Notes: generated by a model from the sequence alone, not told the origin. Counted from the first letter of the stretch, positions 22,722-33,813 are shown. The stretch is DNA of 64,000 bases from an uncultured delta proteobacterium (GCA_963769935.1 CAVYNY010000022.1:256001-320000), one strand, 5' to 3'. Program-made: numbers and translations.

Positions 22722-22748
22722 CTCAAAATTTATGACTTGGAGGAAAGG

Positions 22749-24773
22749 ATGAACTATCTATTACCGCTGATATGCACACTGGTAGGCATAGCAGGTGTGA
22801 TCTTTTCACTTATTATCGCGAGTATGGTTAAAAGTGCCCCGGCCGGCAACGAAAAAATGCGTGAAATCGCAAATGCCATCAAAACGGGTGCCGTGGCCTA
22901 TTTAAACCGGCAGCTCAAAAGCATGGGGATGGCCGGAATCATACTTTTTGTAATCATCGGCGCTGCTTTGAGCTGGAAGACAGCCCTCGGTTTTTTGGTT
23001 GGTGCGATTGCCTCGTTTGCGGCCGGTTACATCGGTATGCGGGTATCGGTGATCGCCAACGTGCGAACCGCTGAAGCAGCCAAGAGCGGCCTGGCCAAAG
23101 GCCTGGCCATGGCATTTAGAGGCGGATCGGTGACGGGTATGATCGTGGCCGGTCTGGCGCTGACGGCTGTGGCCGGCAGCTACACGGTACTGATCGCCAG
23201 CGGATCTGAACCCAGGCATGCGGTCATTGCTCTGGTAGCCCTGGGATTTGGCGGCAGTCTGATTTCTATTTTTGCACGACTGGGCGGCGGCATTTTCACC
23301 AAGGGTGCGGATGTCGGCGCCGACCTGGTAGGAAAAGTTGAAGCCGGCATTCCGGAAGACGATCCGCGCAATCCGGCGGTTATCGCCGACAACGTCGGGG
23401 ACAATGTCGGTGACTGTGCCGGTATGGCAGCCGATTTGTTTGAAACCTACGCCGTTACCGCAGTTGCCGCCATGCTGCTGGGTAACCTGCTTTATCCCAC
23501 CTTGTCCATTGCGACTCAATTTCCGCTTGTGCTGGGTGCCATTTCGATTGTTGCTTCCATGATCGGCATCTTTTTTGTCAAACTCGGCAAAAACGAATAC
23601 ATCATGGGGGCCCTCTATAAAGGCATGTTCGGATCCGCCATCCTGGCGGCCATCGCATTTTTAGTGGCCTGTGTCACCATGTTCAGCGGCGTGGCGGAGC
23701 TTTCCGGCATGCGCATTTTTCTGGCGGCACTCGTCGGGCTGGTTCTTACCGTCGTGATCGTTGTCATCACCGAATACTACACCGGAATTCGCAAGCCGGT
23801 TAAATCAGTGGCGGAAGCTTCCACCACCGGTCACGGCACAAATATCATCGCCGGTCTGGCCGTCAGCATGGAATCCACGGCCCTGCCGGTGCTGGCCATC
23901 TGTTGTGCCATCGGTATCGCCCACTGGGCGGCAGGCTTGTACGGCATTGCCATGGCGGCCATGTCCATGCTTTCCATGACCGGTATGGTCATTGCCATCG
24001 ACGCCTATGGTCCGATTACCGACAATGCCGGCGGAATTGCCGAGATGGCCGGGATGGATGAGAGTGTGCGGGCGGTCACCGACCCGCTGGATGCCGTGGG
24101 CAATACCACCAAAGCAGTCACCAAGGGCTATGCCATCGGTTCGGCCGGCCTGGCGGCCCTGGTGCTGTTTGCGGCCTACACCCAGGAATTCGCACTGCAA
24201 GGCGGCGGCGTGGCCCTGCGGTTTGATCTGAGCGATGTGAGGGTCATCATCGGTCTTTTCATCGGCGGATTGCTGCCGTTCCTGTTTGCTTCGATTGCCA
24301 TGCGGGCGGTCGGCAAGGCCGGCGGAGCCGTGGTGGATGAAGTCCGACGCCAGTTTCGCGAAATTCCGGGTATTATGGAAGGAACCGCCAAACCGGATTA
24401 TGCCCGGTGTGTGGATATCGTCACCCGCTTTGCCCTTAAAGAAATGATCGTGCCGGCCTTATTGCCCGTGGTGACCCCGATTTTGGTTGGTCTGATTCTC
24501 GGCAAAATTGCTCTGGGCGGGGTGCTTATCGGCAGTATCGTTACCGGTCTTTTTCTGGCCATTTCCATGACCACCGGTGGCGCGGCCTGGGACAACGCCA
24601 AGAAATACATCGAAGACGGCCATCTGGGCGGCAAAGGCAGTGATGCCCACAAGGCTGCCGTAACCGGTGATACCGTCGGCGATCCTTACAAGGATACCGC
24701 CGGACCTGCGATTAACCCGATGATCAAAATTCTGAATGTTGTGGCGCTCTTGCTGGTACCTTTCTTAGTGTAA
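22749..24773 (+). CDS. hppA: Membrane ion-translocating pyrophosphatase, K+-independent type
   Basis: [37 protein letters not shown]. Confidence 0.95.
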
Positions 24774-26520: not shown

Positions 26521-26790
26521 GTTGGAGGTTTGAGGTTGGAGGCAGAAAGATAAAAAATACCAGGCTTAAGTACAAGGTGCAGGGTTTCGGGTTTGCAGCA
26601 GGGTCTACGGGGCCGGCTGATAGTTGATGGTTGATTGGGTTGCCGGAAAGATGGGTCCCCGCAATGCTCATGAGCTTTGATGCTCACGGACTAAGAACTC
26701 ATGAACTTCTGAGCTTACGAGCTTGCAAACTTAGTATCTTCCAACCTCCCAACTTTCCAGCTTCTGTTATCTGTCCTCTGTCTTCTGTTC
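26521..26790. repeat. Polarised short-tandem-repeat mosaic between convergent rluD and rnfA
   Basis: gttggag, aggtNcN, gNtgatN 7-mers, then gagcttNN and cttccaNc 8-mers and tctgtNN 7-mers. Confidence 0.85.
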
Positions 26791-27365
26791 TACACCATCC
26801 CCTTGAAGGCTAAAAAGGTAAGGGAGAGAACCCCGGCCGTCACCAGGGCGATGGAGGTGTCCTGCAGAGGACGCGGGACGCGGGCCAAAAGGATTTTTTC
26901 CCGGACACCGGCGAATAGGACCAAGGCCAGGCCGAACCCCACCGCGTAGGCGAAGGATGCCACCAGCGTCTGCATGAAGTTATACTCTTCGTTGATATTA
27001 ATCAGGCACACGCCCAAGACGGCGCAATTGGTGGTAATCAACGGTAAAAAGATGCCCAATCCCGCATAAAGGGCAGGGATGCTCTTTTTTAAAAACATCT
27101 CCACAAACTGGACCAGTGAGGCGATCACCAGAATAAACGCTACGGTTTGAAGGTATTTCAGATCATATTTGACCAGGAAGTAGGTGTAGGTCATCCAGGT
27201 GAACACGCCGGCCAGCACCAGGACGAAGACCACCGCCATGGCCATGCCGATGGCGGTTTCCATTTTCTTGGATGTCCCTAAAAAGGGGCAGTTGCCCAGA
27301 TACTGGGCCAGCAAAATATTATTAATCAGGATACAGCTGATGGCAAGAACTAATAAATCACCCAT
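26790..27365 (-). CDS. rnfA: Rnf complex subunit A
   Basis: QYLGNCPFLG, LGIFLPLITTNCAVLG. Confidence 0.95.
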   Translation of the reverse strand: MGDLLVLAISCILINNILLAQYLGNCPFLGTSKKMETAIGMAMAVVFVLVLAGVFTWMTYTYFLVKYDLKYLQTVAFILVIASLVQFVEMFLKKSIPALYAGLGIFLPLITTNCAVLGVCLININEEYNFMQTLVASFAYAVGFGLALVLFAGVREKILLARVPRPLQDTSIALVTAGVLSLTFLAFKGMV

Positions 27366-27374
27366 GATTGTCTC

Positions 27375-27980
27375 CTATTTTTTCCCCGCAATATTCATGA
27401 GGCACAGCATTAAACCCAGGGCCATGAAGGCGCCGGGGGCTTGGACCATGAATTTAAAAGGTTGAAACGAAGGCCCCAATATCTGAATCGGTGTTCCCCA
27501 GAACGTCAAGGCACCGGTTCCGAGTAATTCACGGACAGCCGCCAGAGACATCAAAGCTAAGGTATACCCGATCCCGATACCCAGCCCGTCCAACATTGAT
27601 CGATACACGCCGTTTTTAGAGGCGAAAGCTTCGGAGCGGCCCAGTACGATGCAGTTAACCACAATCAACGGGATAAATATGCCAAGTTTGAGAAAGAGCG
27701 GATAGGTGTACGCCTGCATGAGCAGTTCCACAACGGTAACGAAGGTGGCGATGATCACGATGTAGCAGGCAATTCGGACTTTCGACGGGATAAGTTTGCG
27801 CAAGGCCGACACCAGCACGTTGGAGCCCACCAGAACAAAGGTTAACGCAACGCCCATTCCGATCCCATTTTCTACGGATTTGGTCACTGCCAGCGTGGGG
27901 CAGAGGCCCAGCACCAGCCGAAAAGGCGGTATTTCATCCCAGAGTCCCTTAACAAATTCCTGTGTCAGAGATTTCGCCAT
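27375..27980 (-). CDS. rnfE: Rnf complex subunit E
   Basis: LGLCPTLAVT, FIPLIVVNCIVLGR, RELLGTG. Confidence 0.95.
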   Translation of the reverse strand: MAKSLTQEFVKGLWDEIPPFRLVLGLCPTLAVTKSVENGIGMGVALTFVLVGSNVLVSALRKLIPSKVRIACYIVIIATFVTVVELLMQAYTYPLFLKLGIFIPLIVVNCIVLGRSEAFASKNGVYRSMLDGLGIGIGYTLALMSLAAVRELLGTGALTFWGTPIQILGPSFQPFKFMVQAPGAFMALGLMLCLMNIAGKK

Positions 27981-27990
27981 AAAGTTCCCC

Positions 27991-28584
27991 TTATTTTTTA
28001 AAGCCCTTTAATTTGTCATCGATCTGAGGTTTGAGTTTCGCATATATTTTTTCGGCGTCCGTGGCCGCGGCCGACACGGCGCGTGAAGTGATGGTCGCCC
28101 CGCTGAGGGCATTGATGGAGCCGCCGTCAGCCGTCACTTTAAATGGTTCTTTTACCGATAGGTCTTTAAATTGTGATACAAAGTTGGGATCGGTTTTCGC
28201 CCTGGCGCCCATGCCGGGTGTCTCACTTTGGGTGGTCACGCTGACGCCCAGCAGTTTATCATCTTTCACGTTGATACCGACCATCAACCCGACATCGCCG
28301 CCAAAGCCCTTAGCCGAAGTCTCAAAGGCAACTCCCTTAGGCTCACCATCGTAAATCCCGACAAAAAACGTTCTTTCAACATCGCCGTCCTTTAACTTAA
28401 AGCGGTCGGTAATGGGATTGTTGCTGGTCCCTTCGAAAATAGCCCGGATGGCCGGCCCTTTGACAAATTCCAGCACCTGATTATCGATCCGATCCTGGGT
28501 GTTGCTGCGCAGGTAGGCAAGTACGCCCCCTGAAAAGCAGCTCAGAATGGTAAGAACGAGGATCATTTTTATCATTTCACGCAT
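27991..28584 (-). CDS. rnfG: Rnf complex subunit G
   Basis: N-terminal anchor, ETPGMG, FMN-attachment motif SGATITS. Confidence 0.93.
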   Translation of the reverse strand: MREMIKMILVLTILSCFSGGVLAYLRSNTQDRIDNQVLEFVKGPAIRAIFEGTSNNPITDRFKLKDGDVERTFFVGIYDGEPKGVAFETSAKGFGGDVGLMVGINVKDDKLLGVSVTTQSETPGMGARAKTDPNFVSQFKDLSVKEPFKVTADGGSINALSGATITSRAVSAAATDAEKIYAKLKPQIDDKLKGFKK

Positions 28585-28585
28585 G

Positions 28586-29545
28586 TTATACAACCTTTCC
28601 CAAAGCTTTTGGTCGAATTTTATCCAGCAGCGGATGGATGAGATTGATGACCAGGACGGCCAGGATTACACCGTCGACATAGGCGCCGATGTTGCGGATC
28701 AATACCGTCATGATTCCACCGACGGCGCCATAGATGAGCATGGGGACAAACCAGACCGGTGAGGAAGAGTCATCGGTGGCCAGGAAAAAGGCCCCGATCA
28801 AGGTATAGCCTGTAAAAATATGAAATCCGGGCCCGGCGAACCGAACCGGGTCAGCTATATTGAACAAGAGGGCGGTGAGATACACCCCGGCGATAAAGGT
28901 AAGGGAAATTTCCCAGCGGATGAATCCGCGGATCATCAGATAGATGCCCCCGATGACCAGACCTAATCCGAATGTAGCTCCGAGGGCGCCCGTTTGCCGG
29001 CCCATCATCAGATCACCCAGGCTAAAGGATTCAATAGATGACGTTCCGAAATGTTTAACGGCGGCCAGCGGAAAAGCGGCAGTGAAGTTAAAATTGTAGT
29101 TCAACAGCATGCCGTTAAAATCGAACAGGTCCTTCCAGGAAATCATCATGATGGCTATGGCCAGGGCCACCGGATTAAAGGCATTGCTCCCGATTCCGCC
29201 ATAAATATGTTTGCCGACCACCAGCGCGATAAAAGTACCGGTGATGACGGCCCACCACGGCATTGTGGCCGGAAGCATCATTGCCAGGAGCAAGCCGGTC
29301 AGGGCGGCACTGCCGTCACCGATGGTGGGTGCTTTTTTCATCACCTTATTGATGGCCAGCTCCCAGAGCATGGCCGAGGCCACAGCCAGGCTGACAACTC
29401 CGATGACCGGCACGCCAAAGTAAACGACGCCTGCGATAACCGCAGGCAGGGCGGCCAGCATCGTGTGATAGCTGCGTTCGGTGACCCTGCTGCCGCTGTG
29501 CCAGAAGGGGGCATGAGAAACGATTAGTTTTTTTTGCTCAAGCAT
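28586..29545 (-). CDS. rnfD: Rnf complex subunit D (atypical; FMN-Thr motif not evident)
   Basis: KHIYGGIGSNAFNP, GAFFLATD..SSP, PLLDKIRPK; TAAFPL where SGATPL is expected. Confidence 0.9.
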   Translation of the reverse strand: MLEQKKLIVSHAPFWHSGSRVTERSYHTMLAALPAVIAGVVYFGVPVIGVVSLAVASAMLWELAINKVMKKAPTIGDGSAALTGLLLAMMLPATMPWWAVITGTFIALVVGKHIYGGIGSNAFNPVALAIAIMMISWKDLFDFNGMLLNYNFNFTAAFPLAAVKHFGTSSIESFSLGDLMMGRQTGALGATFGLGLVIGGIYLMIRGFIRWEISLTFIAGVYLTALLFNIADPVRFAGPGFHIFTGYTLIGAFFLATDDSSSPVWFVPMLIYGAVGGIMTVLIRNIGAYVDGVILAVLVINLIHPLLDKIRPKALGKVV

Positions 29546-30821
29546 CCGTTGCCTCCGCGGTTTTAGCCCGGTTCAATTCATATTTGGCTAACCTGATGTA
29601 CTGAAAAATCGGTATCTTGGATACACAAACATAGCTGCACAGTCCGCATTCGATGCAGGAATACAGATCGTAGCCGTCGGCAGCTTCCTGATAGTGTCCG
29701 GCTTCTAAAAATCTGACCAGCATGTTGACTGACATTTGAGCAGGACAGGCCCGCACGCAATTGCCGCAATTGATGCAGGGATAATCGGATGTGGAGGCGG
29801 CCTTGGTCCGATCCAGCACCATAATGGCATCGGTGTCGGGCAAAATCGGTTGGTCCAGCGAATACACCGCCGTACCCGTCATGGGTCCGCCGAATATTAT
29901 GCGGTCCGCTTCGTTGATGGTGACATCATAAGCTGAAAGAATATCGCGGATGGGCGTTCCGATCGTCGTTTCAATAATTCGCTGATTTTCTTCTTTGGTT
30001 ATCAGGGTAAGGACCTTGCGAACCGGGATCTGGCCGCTCTCGTAGGCGCTGCCGAGGGAGACCACCGCTTCGACGCTCATAAAGCAGACACCCAGATCTT
30101 CACAGCTTTTGCCGGCCGGCACGATCTCTCCCAGGACATTTTTCATGATCATCTGGGGCAGGGCGGCCGGATAGGTGGTGTCAATGCTTTTGCCATCGGC
30201 TCCGATATGACCGAAACCTTGAAGGGCATCCCGGGCCGTCACCAGAATAACGCGTTTGACGCCGGTAATTTGCTTCAGGATCTCAATGCCGCCTTTTAAA
30301 TCGGCGATGCGGGTTTTGGTAATATACTGCCGGGTTCCGACCAGCAGATCGCTGTCGGCGCCCGTTATGACAATGGCTTTGACCGGATGTTCTGATGCCG
30401 CCAGCTTTGCCAGCGGGGGACTGCCCGGTGTGAATGCAAGAAAGTCAAGGGCATTCGCCAGTGTGACGGTCTGACATTGCGCCGCAAACTGGTCGTCTAT
30501 GGTTTCATTTTTATCGATATCGATGGTGACGGCGCTGTAGGTTTTGCCGAAATCACCGGTGTGCGGCGCGATGCCGGAAATGGTGCCGCCGGCACTGGCA
30601 ATGATATAGGCCGGGTCAGCCGCATACAGCGAAATTTTCTGGCCGGTTTTAACCTTGTCGCCGATGTGGAAGGCGGCAGGTGCCTTTTGAGCGGCCTTTT
30701 TAGGATGGTAAAGCGTAACTGTTTTTGATGCCGTCACCCTTTCAGGCGCAGGCAGTCGTGTGGGGAGCAGCCGGTATTGAAATTGCGGAATGTAAAGGCC
30801 GACAAACGATTTTTTAAGCAT
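29538..30821 (-). CDS. rnfC: Rnf complex subunit C-like (FMN/NAD motifs degenerate)
   Basis: GDKVKTGQ N-terminus, GGPMTG, two CxxCxxCxxxC motifs; position in operon. Confidence 0.85.
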   Translation of the reverse strand: MLKKSFVGLYIPQFQYRLLPTRLPAPERVTASKTVTLYHPKKAAQKAPAAFHIGDKVKTGQKISLYAADPAYIIASAGGTISGIAPHTGDFGKTYSAVTIDIDKNETIDDQFAAQCQTVTLANALDFLAFTPGSPPLAKLAASEHPVKAIVITGADSDLLVGTRQYITKTRIADLKGGIEILKQITGVKRVILVTARDALQGFGHIGADGKSIDTTYPAALPQMIMKNVLGEIVPAGKSCEDLGVCFMSVEAVVSLGSAYESGQIPVRKVLTLITKEENQRIIETTIGTPIRDILSAYDVTINEADRIIFGGPMTGTAVYSLDQPILPDTDAIMVLDRTKAASTSDYPCINCGNCVRACPAQMSVNMLVRFLEAGHYQEAADGYDLYSCIECGLCSYVCVSKIPIFQYIRLAKYELNRAKTAEATDA

Positions 30822-30894
30822 AGCACAACCTTTTTTTGTAATGCTGGGAAATTAGATCTCTGCGTCGCGGGCGGCAGTCACGTGATTTTCCGAT

Positions 30895-31284
30895 TTACCT
30901 GACATGGCACGCCGTACAATCTTTTTGGGACGGTCCGGAACCATAGGCCTCGTGACAGCCGCCACACTGCTTGTGGATAGCGTCCGCGAGTGCCGGAACT
31001 TCTTCATCGCCCTCATCCGGTGAATGACATTCGCTGCACGATTGGGCATTATTGTATTCATCTTCAGCGAGCGTGTGATGACAGTCACCGCATGACAACC
31101 CGTAGCCCGCGGCCGAATAATGCTTTTTGTGGTCAAAGATTACATTTCCCGCGGTGACTTCATACTTTATGCGAATCGGATCATGGGGCTTTTGGGGAGG
31201 AAATGCCGCATAACACAACACACCGACGAAAAGAAAATAGATGATCAGACCGTATGCCAGTTTCAGCTCGTTTTTTGAAAACAT
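30895..31284 (-). CDS. Tetraheme cytochrome c3 (class III) with N-terminal hydrophobic segment
   Basis: VIFDHKKH plus four CxxCH motifs (CGDCH, CSECH, CGGCH, CTACH). Confidence 0.9.
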   Translation of the reverse strand: MFSKNELKLAYGLIIYFLFVGVLCYAAFPPQKPHDPIRIKYEVTAGNVIFDHKKHYSAAGYGLSCGDCHHTLAEDEYNNAQSCSECHSPDEGDEEVPALADAIHKQCGGCHEAYGSGPSQKDCTACHVR

Positions 31285-31518
31285 ATTCCGTCCATACCTT
31301 AGATTCTAGTTTTGAAAACCTGATTTTCCGGGCCAGGTCAGTCCGCATGAGCCGCATTGCTGCAGTTGAACGCCATGGGGTACTGGAATAATGAAATGTT
31401 GGAGTGCTGGGTTTGGCGGACTGCGATCTATTGTAAACAGCATTCCTCAGAAATTCAAAGTTCGACTACCACAATGCCATAAAGCTTTCAAGAATTTTTT
31501 TATGGGATGTAGTGCCAA

Positions 31519-31674
31519 GTGCTCACTCAAAAATAACTTCACATTTTATACGCCGCTGCATCCCGCCCGGCAGCGTTGCGAAAGCTCGAAATATCCAGAT
31601 ATGCCTGCGTCTTCACACCTTGCCGGACAGGCGCCGCAACGCCTAAAATTGTGGATTTAATTTTTCGTGAACCC
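31519..31674 (+). mobile_element. 156-bp hairpin MITE, copy 3 (more diverged)
   Basis: GTGCTCAC...GTGAACCC; flanks CAA/TAA; same length as copies 1 and 2. Confidence 0.85.
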
Positions 31675-31695
31675 TAAATCAAACGGTCGTTCGTG

Positions 31696-33813
31696 TCAGG
31701 CGGTCTCGGATTGGGTGCGCAAATCCTGAAGCAATGCCTTATCAGCGTAGGCCTTGTCCGGGTTGTAGCAGGTGAGACAGCAAAAAAGGCACCGGTTGCT
31801 TTCTCCCCGGGCGGCTTCTTCGCTTAATACCTGATCGACCTCGATAAAAGAATGAATACGTTCCTCAACCGGCAATTCCGGCATGTGAGTTCTTCGGCTT
31901 TTAACGATTCCCGGAACCTGGTCGAAGATGGTTTCAGCAATCAGATCTTTAGCCAACTCTTTTGGATCCGCACTGACCGGCAATCCCGTGACATACTGGT
32001 GAATCGAGCGGGCCGCCCGCCGTCCGCCGCCGATGGCAGTCACTACCAGACTGGGACCGGTGGCCGCATCCCCCGCAGCAAAGATGTGGGGAATATTGGA
32101 TTGCAGGGTAGCCGGATCAACTTCAATCGTATTCCAGCGGGTGGTTTTGAGTTGCATGACCTGTTCCATGATGCCTTCGGTGAAGGAAACTTCCGGGGAC
32201 TGGCCGATGGCTGTAATGACCATATCCGTTTCGATCAGGGTCTCAGAACCTTCAATGGGGACCGGTCTTCTTCTGCCGCTGGCATCCGGTTCTCCCAGCT
32301 CCATTTTTAAGTATTCCAGATGGGTGACGTTGCCGTTTTCATCTCCAATGACGCGAACCGGAGCCGCCAGAAACTGAAATTTGACCCCTTCCTCCTCAGC
32401 GGCGTCAATTTCTACCTCGTTGGCCGGCATTTCGTTGCGCGTTCGGCGATAGACGATGTAAACGTTTTCGACCCCCAACCGGAGCAGGTTGCGGGTACAG
32501 TCAATGGCCGTGTTTCCGCCGCCGATGATAACGGATGATCGGCCGACCGGTATTTTTTCACCGCCGGCCAGACGCGATAAGAAGTCAATGCCCGTGTAAC
32601 ATCCTTTTAAATTCTCGCCTTCCACCCGCAGTTTTGAGTCCTGCCACGCGCCGATACCAAGGAAAACGGCATCATAATTTTTGGCTGCCAGGGATGCCAG
32701 GTCAAAATCGCGACCGAACTTCATATTGGTGTGGGCCTCGATGCCAAGATTGAGGATGCCTTCGATTTCCCAGTCCAGCACTTTTTTTGGCAGCCGGTAC
32801 TCAGGAATCCCATAGCGCAGCATGCCGCCCAATTTGGGCATGGCTTCATAAATCGTTACATCGTGGCCCAGTCTTCGCAAAAAGAAAGCGCAGGTGAGCC
32901 CTGCCGGACCGCCGCCGACAACTGCCACATGTTTGCCCGTGGACGGAGCCACCGGCACCGGCACCCGTTTGCCGGCGTTCATTTCATAATCGGCAGCAAA
33001 GCGTTTCAGCTGATTGATGGACACCGGATCGTCTTCGATGCCCCGCCGGCAATTCTCCTCGCAGGGATGCGGACAAACCCGGCCGCACGCCAGCAGCAAA
33101 GGGTTGCGCTCCCGGATGGTATTGACGGCACCTTCATAGTCGCCCTCACGTATTTGAGCGATGTATTTGGGAATATCGATTTCAGCCGGGCAGGTTTGGC
33201 GGCAGGGCGCCAATCGATCATCGGATTGGTTGAAATGCAGAATGCGTTGGGATGCCGTGGTTACATTCATCACGCCTTTCGGGCAGATCAGCTCGCATAC
33301 GCCGCAGCCGACACATTTTTGTCTGTCGACCACCGGATATCCCGCCGGCCCCATCGTTAACGCACCAAACATACAGGCCCGCACACAATCGCCCAAACCC
33401 AGGCATCCGACGCTGCAAACCCGCTGGCCGCCGGACATGGCAGCCTGGGCACTGCAGGTGTTAACGCCCACGTAAACGAATTTATTCTCGGCCCGGTTCC
33501 CGCCGGTGCAGGTATTGTAAGATTTGAGCGGCTCGGCCATGCCGACTTCCATACCCATGACAGCGGCCGCCCCTTGGGCGGAATCCGCGCCTCCAACCAC
33601 ACACACGCTGGGAGCTGCTTTACCTGCTACCACCGCAACCGCTGCTGCCGAGCATCCGGCATACCCGCAACCGCCGCAGTTTGCACCGGCTAAACATGAC
33701 TCGACCTCGGAAATACGAGGATCTTCCCAGACATAAAATATTAGCGACGCTGCGCCGAGCACAATTCCACAAATTGCACCCAGCGCCAGCATGAAAATTG
33801 TTCCTTCAAACAT
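31696..33813 (-). CDS. rnfB: RnfB fused to a GltD/NfnB-like FAD/NADPH oxidoreductase
   Basis: TM anchor, LAGANCGGCGYAGC and ferredoxin motifs; then PCRQTCP, CGRVCPHPCEENC, GGGPAG, GGGNTAIDC, VYRR, FAAGD. Confidence 0.92.
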   Translation of the reverse strand: MFEGTIFMLALGAICGIVLGAASLIFYVWEDPRISEVESCLAGANCGGCGYAGCSAAAVAVVAGKAAPSVCVVGGADSAQGAAAVMGMEVGMAEPLKSYNTCTGGNRAENKFVYVGVNTCSAQAAMSGGQRVCSVGCLGLGDCVRACMFGALTMGPAGYPVVDRQKCVGCGVCELICPKGVMNVTTASQRILHFNQSDDRLAPCRQTCPAEIDIPKYIAQIREGDYEGAVNTIRERNPLLLACGRVCPHPCEENCRRGIEDDPVSINQLKRFAADYEMNAGKRVPVPVAPSTGKHVAVVGGGPAGLTCAFFLRRLGHDVTIYEAMPKLGGMLRYGIPEYRLPKKVLDWEIEGILNLGIEAHTNMKFGRDFDLASLAAKNYDAVFLGIGAWQDSKLRVEGENLKGCYTGIDFLSRLAGGEKIPVGRSSVIIGGGNTAIDCTRNLLRLGVENVYIVYRRTRNEMPANEVEIDAAEEEGVKFQFLAAPVRVIGDENGNVTHLEYLKMELGEPDASGRRRPVPIEGSETLIETDMVITAIGQSPEVSFTEGIMEQVMQLKTTRWNTIEVDPATLQSNIPHIFAAGDAATGPSLVVTAIGGGRRAARSIHQYVTGLPVSADPKELAKDLIAETIFDQVPGIVKSRRTHMPELPVEERIHSFIEVDQVLSEEAARGESNRCLFCCLTCYNPDKAYADKALLQDLRTQSETA

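Follow-up and report, generated by a model that had tools for sequence, protein, structure and literature searches.

The Rnf2 complex of sulfate reducers, as described for the Desulfobacula toluolica Tol2 type, has an RnfB of ~700 aa with nucleotide sites, an RnfC without the NADH domain and a cytochrome (PMC5109826, PMC11887813), and is reported to be part of the Desulfobacteraceae core genome and to be made constitutively (PMC11887813). In the papers that we consulted, we found no measured reaction for Rnf2. For the canonical complex of Acetobacterium woodii, the Na+ pump is attributed to RnfA/E, with RnfD conducting electrons only (PMC11889175), and the Desulfovibrio locus dhcA-rnfCDGEABF has been modelled in print as ferredoxin (Fd):NAD+ (PMC4841214, PMC4215793). 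Here we describe an rnf locus found in a window of 64,000 nucleotides (the whole stretch of DNA analysed) from an uncultured delta proteobacterium. Judged from sequence by the features described for this type, it is an intact copy of the Rnf2 already described; an earlier note on this DNA mentioned reports of second rnf clusters with cytochromes in sulfate reducers and could not say whether the coordinated motif loss had been described, and the architecture has been published as Rnf2 of Desulfobacteraceae. In itself the locus is a further example of a known system, to which our analysis adds the loss of four residues at the RnfD FMN site, the kept Na+ residues of RnfA/E and the NADPH-type fused domain resembling StnC/NfnA.

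Gene content and conserved core

The operon consists of seven stop-free ORFs, all on the minus strand, that span 26790..33813 in the order rnfB(fused)-cytochrome c3-rnfC-D-G-E-A (Table 1). All six Rnf subunit families are present, and the close relatives are from Desulfobacterales (Desulfosarcina, Desulfococcus, Desulfatibacillum, Desulfobacteraceae). For rnfG, the likelier start codon is the ATG at 28584. Between rnfB and the cytochrome gene lies a gap of 411 bp; the sigma-70-like site before the latter gene is weak, since consensus matching found 11 such sites where 6.2 were expected. No Rex-type operator was matched near the operon (7 weak matches in the window vs 3.5 expected).

Table 1. 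Positions of the operon's genes and of selected features within the window
Feature	Position	Strand	Remarks
rnfB fused to GltD-like module	31696..33813	(-)	705 aa; 21 Cys columns invariant in 80/80 fused homologues
GltD-like FAD/NADPH domain of RnfB, residues 198-685	31759..33222	(-)	PDB matches
sigma-70-like site, gap before cytochrome gene	31430..31458	(-)	consensus match only
tetraheme class III cytochrome c, 129 aa	30895..31284	(-)	
rnfC, 427 aa, without FMN/NAD motifs	29538..30821	(-)	191 bits, cut-off 246
RnfC two-cluster 4Fe-4S domain, C349-C399, retained	29625..29777	(-)	
rnfD, 319 aa, RnfD fold	28586..29545	(-)	FMN pocket lost, riboflavin-side N124 and D258 kept
RnfD F158 codon, position of the FMN-carrying Thr	29072..29074	(-)	alignment to 7zc6_D, 9eri_D
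rnfG with flavinylation motif SGAT	27991..28593	(-)	RnfG_DVU2794 259 bits, cut-off 205
SGAT motif in rnfG	28093-28104	(-)	
rnfE with C27/C110 and Na+/gating residues	27375..27980	(-)	each in 109/109 relatives
rnfA with C26/C114 and Na+/gating residues	26790..27365	(-)	each in 104/104 relatives

In agreement with the earlier note, which had reported four kept Fe-S cysteines in RnfA/E, an SGAT motif in RnfG, a flavo-oxidoreductase fused to RnfB and a co-encoded tetraheme c3, the cysteines of RnfA and RnfE align to the A. woodii cluster ligands, SGAT lies at residues 164-167 of RnfG (with Thr/Ser at the motif in 117/117 relatives), the RnfB N-terminus is joined to a GltD-like C-terminal module, and a class III cytochrome with four CxxCH motifs is encoded between rnfB and rnfC. 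The Na+/gating residues are also kept, as L23, E89, L109, T111, T112, N113 and R155 in RnfA and as L24, R69, L105, V108, N109 and E117 in RnfE; among the A/E residues named for A. woodii, the exceptions are Y105, replaced by F, and K32, which is variable. In the alignments, the B-A/E-G half is fully conserved. The cytochrome is closest to a type II c3 structure and acidic (pI 5.4 as computed from residue 31 onward); H52, H55 and H70, conserved in the alignment, are candidate distal His ligands, H104 is the likely fourth, and the conserved N-terminal hydrophobic helix may be an anchor or a signal.

Lost flavin sites and retained ligands in RnfC and RnfD

The loss of flavin motifs from RnfC and RnfD, also claimed previously, is confirmed. 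RnfC has 0/3 of the FMN/NAD motifs (Complex1_51K, 21.7 bits, below the 31.2 cut-off), and the three are absent in 119/119 related loci of the same type but kept in 33 canonical loci. In RnfD, which has a TM-score of about 0.8 against canonical RnfD, F158 aligns to the FMN threonine T153 of C. tetanomorphum (alignment to 7zc6_D and 9eri_D), and I130, A190 and I294 align to R130, E185 and S284; T153, R130 and E185 are each found in 33/33 canonical loci. The commonest substitute of the threonine is Tyr (69/119 loci), and in NqrB a Thr-to-Tyr swap (T236Y) is reported to remove FMN and disrupt electron flow (PMC12901251). One locus (L096) has Ser at the Thr column, with the flanking residues missing. 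Mean identities indicate that RnfC and RnfD are drifting faster than A/E in loci with both fusion and cytochrome (0.40 and 0.58 vs 0.76 for RnfA and 0.74 for RnfE); in canonical loci, C/D (0.48, 0.47) match A/E (0.50, 0.47).

We rejected decay of a single genome as the cause of the motif loss, since the loss extends across the clade and the reading frames are unbroken; nor is the loss due to chance, with the RnfC motifs missing from every related locus of this type and T153, R130 and E185 present in every canonical one. That the complex is an ordinary ferredoxin:NAD+ Rnf with divergent motifs is highly improbable given the missing RnfC motifs and RnfD threonine, even though the six subunit families are present, the operon's rnfD is the genome's only RnfD-family gene, and Rnf2 is still linked in print to NADH and ferredoxin pools (PMC11887813). 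Within the papers and passages that our search covered, we found no report of RnfD FMN-residue loss in Rnf2; it may be described elsewhere in the Rnf2 literature, including the supplement of PMC11887813.

The further claim of the earlier note, that the D-C arm is redox-silent, is unproven as stated, because the two 4Fe-4S clusters of RnfC and the riboflavin ligands of RnfD remain. All eight RnfC cysteines are kept, each in at least 118/119 loci, and the operon's RnfD has both N124 and D258; these residues were missing from that note. The riboflavin aspartate (D248) is an acid in 118/119 relatives, and N124 is kept in 98/119, including 29/29 in the tetraheme subset. Such conservation suits the main alternative to the single crossing proposed below, a less likely one, in which the U-shaped path would survive in shortened form. 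RnfG FMN would pass electrons directly to RnfD riboflavin, from where they would reach the two RnfC clusters and then a cytoplasmic partner that takes part in one-electron transfer and is not NAD+; NADPH would serve the RnfB end, and the cytochrome would be an optional side branch. RnfC is indeed said to need a donor or acceptor other than NAD (PMC5109826), and in an AlphaFold model of a different RnfD-like protein that lacks the Thr, the partner's FMN comes close to the flavin site. On the other hand, the NqrB T236Y swap disrupts flow, the riboflavin aspartate is Glu in 94/119 relatives (vs Asp in 33/33 canonical loci), N124 is replaced in 21/119, the RnfD pocket is filled with bulky residues, off-path Fe-S clusters needed for assembly have a reported precedent in StnC (PMC10482914), and no gene for such a partner accompanies the operon among the loci listed.

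The fused RnfB

The domain order in RnfB is a membrane anchor, a mobile 4Fe-4S domain (C46/49/54/71), further Fe-S clusters and the FAD/NADPH domain. The GltD-like domain carries the motifs GGGPAG 300, GGGNTA 431 and YRR 455, and its best PDB matches are 9bov_A, NfnA 9n5u and 8oh5_C (E < 1e-122), the last of which was taken as StnC from its length and K170. The counterpart of StnC K170, the non-bifurcating type, is K270, and 79/80 fused RnfB homologues have Lys in this column. By these motifs, the fused domain resembles NADPH-binding, non-bifurcating StnC/NfnA. Electron bifurcation is not favoured, K270 being as in StnC: it stands in place of the Glu ligand that bifurcating NfnB-type proteins have at the FAD-proximal cluster, and the operon has no NfnA partner gene. 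The placing of NADP(H) at this domain, another proposal of the earlier note, fits the operon's own RnfB, which has the NADPH fingerprint, but is not general, the fingerprint being found in 59/80 fused RnfBs (this one included) and absent in 21/80.

With ferredoxin-type clusters and an FAD domain on one chain, RnfB might itself be chiefly a membrane-anchored ferredoxin:NADP+ oxidoreductase, passing electrons from ferredoxin along its Fe-S chain and FAD to NADP+, the membrane core serving as a secondary outlet. A soluble RnfB-GltD paralogue without the anchor adjoins nuoEF-like genes in the genome, and a membrane-bound NADPH dehydrogenase and Fd:NADP activity were reportedly described in Desulfobacter postgatei in 1988. 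We nevertheless think this unlikely, since it explains neither the unfused members of the clade nor why the RnfG Thr/Ser, the mobile cluster of RnfB and, in A/E, both the cluster and the gating residues are invariant. Quite unlikely, too, is an Nqr-like NADPH:menaquinone reductase in which RnfD would reduce quinone directly. This would parallel the Rnf-to-Nqr change, in that a domain oxidising a nucleotide occupies the place of RnfB and RnfC is poor in cofactors, and the RnfD riboflavin ligands are partly kept; NqrB, however, is reported to keep and need its FMN (PMC12901251), and its quinone site uses N-terminal helices that are missing in RnfD (319 aa vs 415 aa). Nor does the operon encode a Na+-NQR, which has an NqrF subunit, a flavinylated NqrB with quinone helices and an NqrA free of cofactors: all Nqr models scored below cut-off, and RnfC keeps its Fe-S cysteines.

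Distribution across genomes

The earlier note's expectation that C/D motif loss would co-occur with the RnfB fusion holds in one direction: the loss is seen in 32/32 fused loci of the phylum sample, but 12 unfused (short-RnfB) loci, Desulfovibrio-like ones included, are equally degenerate. Because the loss maps to one branch, the co-occurrence amounts to one evolutionary event, and by this mapping the motif loss arose once. Strict coupling of the loss to the fusion was rejected, as short-RnfB members are nested inside the clade and a tree uniting all 22 fused loci is rejected at p-AU 0.003 (a group named after the tree was seen). Strict coupling to an adjacent cytochrome was rejected as well, 14/32 fused loci of the sample having no cytochrome gene beside rnfC, and so was strict coupling of this Rnf type to Qrc, as 10/58 genomes have no QrcD. 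Of 16 fused loci without the cytochrome, 8 have Thr at the RnfD column, though without A152, R130 or E185; these, the cytochrome-less loci in general and the reported dispensability of dhcA in D. alaskensis all speak for the path through RnfD and RnfC to a cytoplasmic partner.

The genome encodes QrcABCD, all four above cut-offs, together with a further c3 and the small subunit of a hydrogenase of periplasmic type. QrcD occurs in 48/58 genomes with this Rnf type vs 0/22 without it, and 24/84 QrcD genomes in a 400-genome draw have no RnfD match; relatedness among the genomes and their common sulfate respiration confound the Rnf-Qrc association.

A proposed single crossing to cytochrome c3

The reading that we prefer, and to which we give about an even chance, is that Rnf2 without the C/D flavin sites would move electrons from NADPH to cytochrome c3 in a single passage through the membrane, exporting Na+ and supplying Qrc and menaquinone. 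The loss of return-path flavin residues alongside kept sodium-pump residues points to such a single crossing. Electrons would pass from NADPH through the fused domain, by way of its FAD and Fe-S chain, to the mobile RnfB cluster, the A/E 2Fe-2S cluster, RnfG FMN and cytochrome c3, with Na+ leaving with the electron by the A. woodii mechanism, so that the step would be electroneutral and reversible; on H2 the direction could reverse, forming NADPH. Return would be from periplasmic c3 through QrcABCD to menaquinone and Qmo/Dsr, which would make Rnf2 and Qrc a split NADPH:menaquinone reductase, and RnfC and RnfD would be mainly scaffold.

Consistent with a single crossing are the kept A/E pump residues, the joint change of four RnfD FMN-pocket residues, the faster C/D drift, the NADPH-type fused domain and the presence of QrcABCD. 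The donor of Qrc in Desulfobacteraceae is presented as an open question, Rnf2 and Qrc both being constitutive (PMC11887813), an exit from RnfG to a cytochrome has been proposed for Methanosarcina acetivorans (PMC4023990, bioRxiv 2022.07.20.500911), and Fd:NAD+-coupled gradient assays are reported to have failed in D. alaskensis vesicles. Against it, the near-invariant RnfC cysteines, the RnfD acid and the mostly kept N124 fit a working D-C arm. D. alaskensis dhcA mutants are described as having no rnf phenotype and rnfD mutants as having one (the strain's RnfD sequence lies outside our comparison), and the ion in that organism appears to be H+. The fused loci without a cytochrome and the RnfBs without the NADPH fingerprint also count against it, as does the frameshift in the only apbE found in the assembly; the QrcD genomes without an RnfD match and the Rnf genomes without QrcD weigh against the Qrc link.

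If the cytochrome exit is real, Rnf2 would be the unidentified electron donor of Qrc, and a route would be explained for cytoplasmic NADPH from complete oxidation to sulfate reduction; the complex would then offer a natural test of whether RnfA/E pumps Na+ by itself, as claimed, and energy models giving Desulfovibrio Rnf an Fd:NAD+ activity would need revision. At somewhat less than an even chance, we extend this reading to one Desulfobacterota Rnf lineage, including the Desulfovibrio-type complex that is usually drawn as an Fd:NAD+ reductase. Its complexes would act as electron/cation symporters with one crossing, linking cytoplasmic NADPH (or ferredoxin) to the periplasmic c3 pool; with Qrc they would form a split NADPH:menaquinone pump, and in sulfate reducers that oxidise completely they would be the donor of Qrc that is still missing.

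Comparison with known systems

The decaheme-led loci of the Desulfovibrio dhcA-rnfCDGEABF layout (PMC4841214, PMC4215793) fall inside the clade and have the C and D losses in common with our operon, whereas the Desulfovibrio RnfB, as described, is short and without the NADPH domain, and the cytochrome has ten hemes. In Desulfovibrionaceae-like RnfDs, the Thr column is occupied by Asp in 125/125 cases, in a set that does not include the model strains' sequences, and RnfGs of the clade score 185-288 bits against RnfG_DVU2794 vs 76-133 bits for Thr-bearing loci. In the M. acetivorans MmcA-Rnf, NAD is likewise reported not to be used, and the proposed acceptor of RnfG is a multiheme cytochrome encoded in the operon; that system differs in its ferredoxin donor and methanophenazine acceptor, and its B, C, D and G cofactor sites are reported as conserved. 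StnC/NfnA (PMC10482914; PDB 8oh5, 9n5u, 9bov) share with the fused domain the FAD and NADPH motifs, two 4Fe-4S clusters and the Lys at the proximal cluster, but are described as soluble and as partners of a HydBC-type bifurcating module rather than of a membrane Rnf core. With the canonical Na+-Rnf of A. woodii and Clostridium tetanomorphum (PMC11889175, PMC9588780), as reported, the operon shares the six subunits, the RnfD fold, the A/E 2Fe-2S ligands, the Na+ gating residues, the RnfG motif and the RnfC ferredoxin domain; it differs in having no FMN site in RnfD or RnfC and in adding the FAD/NADPH domain and the cytochrome. The passages considered on Tol2-type Rnf2 (PMC5109826, PMC11887813) make no mention of RnfD FMN loss, NADPH specificity or a cytochrome exit, and the operon departs from that type in having rnfB first rather than last, as in 14/70 related loci. 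As described there, Rnf2 shares with the operon an RnfB of ~700 aa (here 705 aa) with NAD(P)-binding and Fe-S domains, an RnfC without NADH/FMN-binding features and, within the cluster, a gene for a small, acidic cytochrome c.

Locus and cofactor sites

All subunits of the operon could be assigned to their families with Pfam and NCBIfam profiles: RnfA, RnfD, RnfE and RnfG score above the profile cut-offs (RnfG also above that of RnfG_DVU2794), and RnfC below (191 vs 246 bits). The operon has the GC content of its flanks, and no second RnfD-family gene was found in the 8.0-Mb assembly, the locus rnfD being the only one detected. We are nearly certain that the locus is real and belongs to the known Rnf2 type. 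A membrane protein 2 kb away resembles, by its motifs, a membrane-bound pyrophosphatase of the HppA type.

Coordinates of the rnf operon and other features of the source genome
Feature	Position	Strand	Remarks
rnfB	window 33813-31696	-	intact ORF, 705 aa
cytochrome gene	window 31284-30895	-	intact ORF, 129 aa
rnfC	window 30821-29538	-	intact ORF
rnfD	window 29545-28586	-	intact ORF
rnfG	window 28593-27991	-	intact ORF
rnfE	window 27980-27375	-	intact ORF
rnfA	window 27365-26790	-	intact ORF
membrane protein	window 22737-24773	opposite to rnf	678 aa
nuoE-like, nuoF-like and anchor-less RnfB-GltD genes in a row	L217:3549-8454 (G000:C9:291548-296453)
apbE	L214:3874-4877 (G000:C19)		split in two reading frames by a frameshift
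dense multiheme cytochrome gene cluster	G000:C17:103000-168000		up to 26 CxxCH motifs

Key residues were transferred through PDB alignments from PMC9588780 and PMC11889175. As the earlier note had claimed, RnfA and RnfE retain all four cluster cysteines, and RnfG its SGAT motif; the residues assigned to Na+ and gating in A. woodii are also kept in RnfA/RnfE, except that Y105 is replaced by F. The flavo-oxidoreductase fused to RnfB is confirmed as a C-terminal module whose best matches are the NADPH-binding domains of NfnA and StnC and which carries GGGNTA, YRR and the lysine of non-bifurcating StnC, and the co-encoded tetraheme cytochrome is indeed of class III, closest to type II c3, with a conserved N-terminal helix. 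The proposed loss of flavin motifs holds as well: RnfC lacks the glycine loop, the ECEP motif and the YPxGxEK motif and retains eight cluster cysteines, and in RnfD, F158 occupies the position of the FMN threonine, whose neighbours R130, E185 and S284 have become I, A and I; RnfD does retain N124 and D258, its riboflavin ligands. The predicted structure (pLDDT 81.6; TM-score about 0.8 vs 9eri_D, 8ahx_D and 7zc6_D) indicates that this protein still has the RnfD fold.

Distribution and history of the motif loss

We compared 70 loci retrieved with the locus RnfD (60 with near-complete RnfC and RnfD) and 100 loci from genomes of the phylum (98 usable). An RnfD match was obtained in 160 of 401 genomes; the 100 loci were hand-picked from these, relatives being over-represented, so that their frequencies are not phylum-wide. 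Both RnfC and RnfD lack the flavin motifs (are degenerate) in 59 of the 98 and are canonical in 33; the other 6 pair a degenerate RnfC with a Thr-bearing RnfD. The expectation that motif loss accompanies the fusion stood in one direction: all 32 fused loci are degenerate, but so are 12 with a short RnfB (9 of these with a cytochrome). In a further 15 degenerate loci, the operon as covered by the retrieved stretch contains no intact rnfB, and 14 of the 32 fused loci lack a cytochrome gene before rnfC.

Across 119 degenerate loci, the RnfD threonine column holds Tyr in 69 loci and Thr in 8. At the R130 column W, V, I and Y lead, and R is not common. An acidic residue stands at the D248 column in 118 loci, and none of the RnfC cluster cysteines is missing from more than one. 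In this clade, though not in canonical loci, RnfC and RnfD are less conserved than RnfA and RnfE. All 125 relatives of the decaheme-led RnfD, which where named are Desulfovibrio, Bilophila or Desulfovibrionaceae, have Asp at the threonine column.

The operon cytochrome has 4 to 8 hemes in Desulfobacterales loci (L032-L121) and reaches 10 in Desulfovibrio-like loci, with the same N-terminal helix. In L149 and L195, the tetraheme gene before rnfC appears, judging from N-terminal sequences, to be the last of a tmc-like operon, and its adjacency may be of other origin.

An RnfA+RnfE tree (56 rows thinned from 99; the locus itself was dropped, two close relatives are in) places all 38 degenerate rows on a single branch (100/100), so that the flavin loss occurred a single time and its co-occurrence with the fusion is likewise one event, not many. 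A single group of fused loci was rejected by the tree test. Given this rejection and the nesting of short-RnfB members inside the degenerate branch, the fusion was probably lost afterwards, at least twice.

Two further variants were seen. In ten loci (L159, L161, L168-L170, L172, L175, L179-L181), RnfC and RnfD are canonical, RnfE lacks its second cluster cysteine, RnfA has an N-terminal extension of roughly 120 aa, and the rnfG position is occupied by an ORF of about 300 aa with TGAT; as Rnf2 is present too in six of these genomes, the two variants resemble halves that complement each other. In five others (L151, L163, L167, L200, L201; gene order G-E-A-B-C-D in four), the RnfC FMN/NAD motifs are gone and the RnfD threonine is kept, a loss that arose independently and outside the Rnf2 clade.

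Possible electron routes

According to PMC11889175, Na+ crosses with the electron via RnfA/E in A. woodii, and RnfD merely returns the electron. Compared with that complex, the pumping half is intact here, whereas the returning half lacks FMN-binding residues. Replacing the equivalent threonine of NqrB with Tyr removed FMN and disrupted electron flow (PMC12901251), and exit from RnfG to a cytochrome has been proposed for M. acetivorans (PMC4023990, bioRxiv 2022.07.20.500911). The simplest reading is that electrons would leave at RnfG for the cytochrome here too. This single crossing, put forward in the earlier note, is in our view the best mechanism, ahead of a shortened D-C arm, and has about an even chance of being correct. 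With electron and Na+ exiting together, the step would be electroneutral and also near equilibrium, since NADPH (about -320 mV) and c3 hemes (-200 to -400 mV) have similar potentials; charge separation would arise when Qrc passes electrons back to menaquinone.

Genes for QrcABCD, TmcA, another c3 and a hydrogenase are present in the genome. Of the 58 genomes with a degenerate locus, 48 have QrcD (47 hits exceed the cut-off and one is truncated at a contig end), as against none of the 22 where only Thr-bearing loci were seen (some second RnfD hits are unclassified). The link is confounded by kinship, and it is not obligate, since an RnfD match is lacking in 24 of the 84 genomes with QrcD. The only apbE found lies near a contig end, and its split is either a real lesion or an assembly error. 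The genome also has a multiheme cytochrome cluster (table).

A shortened but working D-C arm, which we hold to be less likely than the single crossing, would fit the invariant RnfC clusters and the retained riboflavin ligands, and is also implied by PMC5109826; clusters kept for assembly alone nevertheless exist in StnC (PMC10482914), so the invariance is not decisive. Evidence against the single crossing also comes from D. alaskensis, an unfused relative compared here without its sequence: the cytochrome gene is dispensable there and rnfD is not, and the ion appears to be H+; a gradient driven by Fd:NAD+ was not demonstrated in the same work (PMC4841214, PMC4215793). Insertions can break complex assembly, however, and the role of the cytochrome could be taken over by a soluble c3. 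A branched complex would combine the single crossing with the shortened arm.

Returning to the single crossing, its NADPH entry is complicated by the 21 of 80 fused RnfBs in which the NADPH fingerprint is missing; in a subsample, most of these fall on a branch apart from the others, joined there by the GltD domain of the soluble, anchor-less RnfB-GltD paralogue from the source genome. The gene row of that paralogue looks like a soluble Stn/Nfn-Bfu-type complex.

Relation to known Rnf2

Our literature search, with the supplement of PMC11887813 outside its scope, found no paper on the RnfD flavin-residue change in Rnf2. That article describes Rnf2 as constitutive and part of the family core genome, and Qrc there as requiring a donor different from hydrogenase. 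The system is not new: the locus has the same build as the D. toluolica-type Rnf2, which according to PMC5109826 works in another, as yet unverified way, with RnfC serving a partner that is not NAD. The residue pattern renders a question in sulfate-reducer bioenergetics directly testable.
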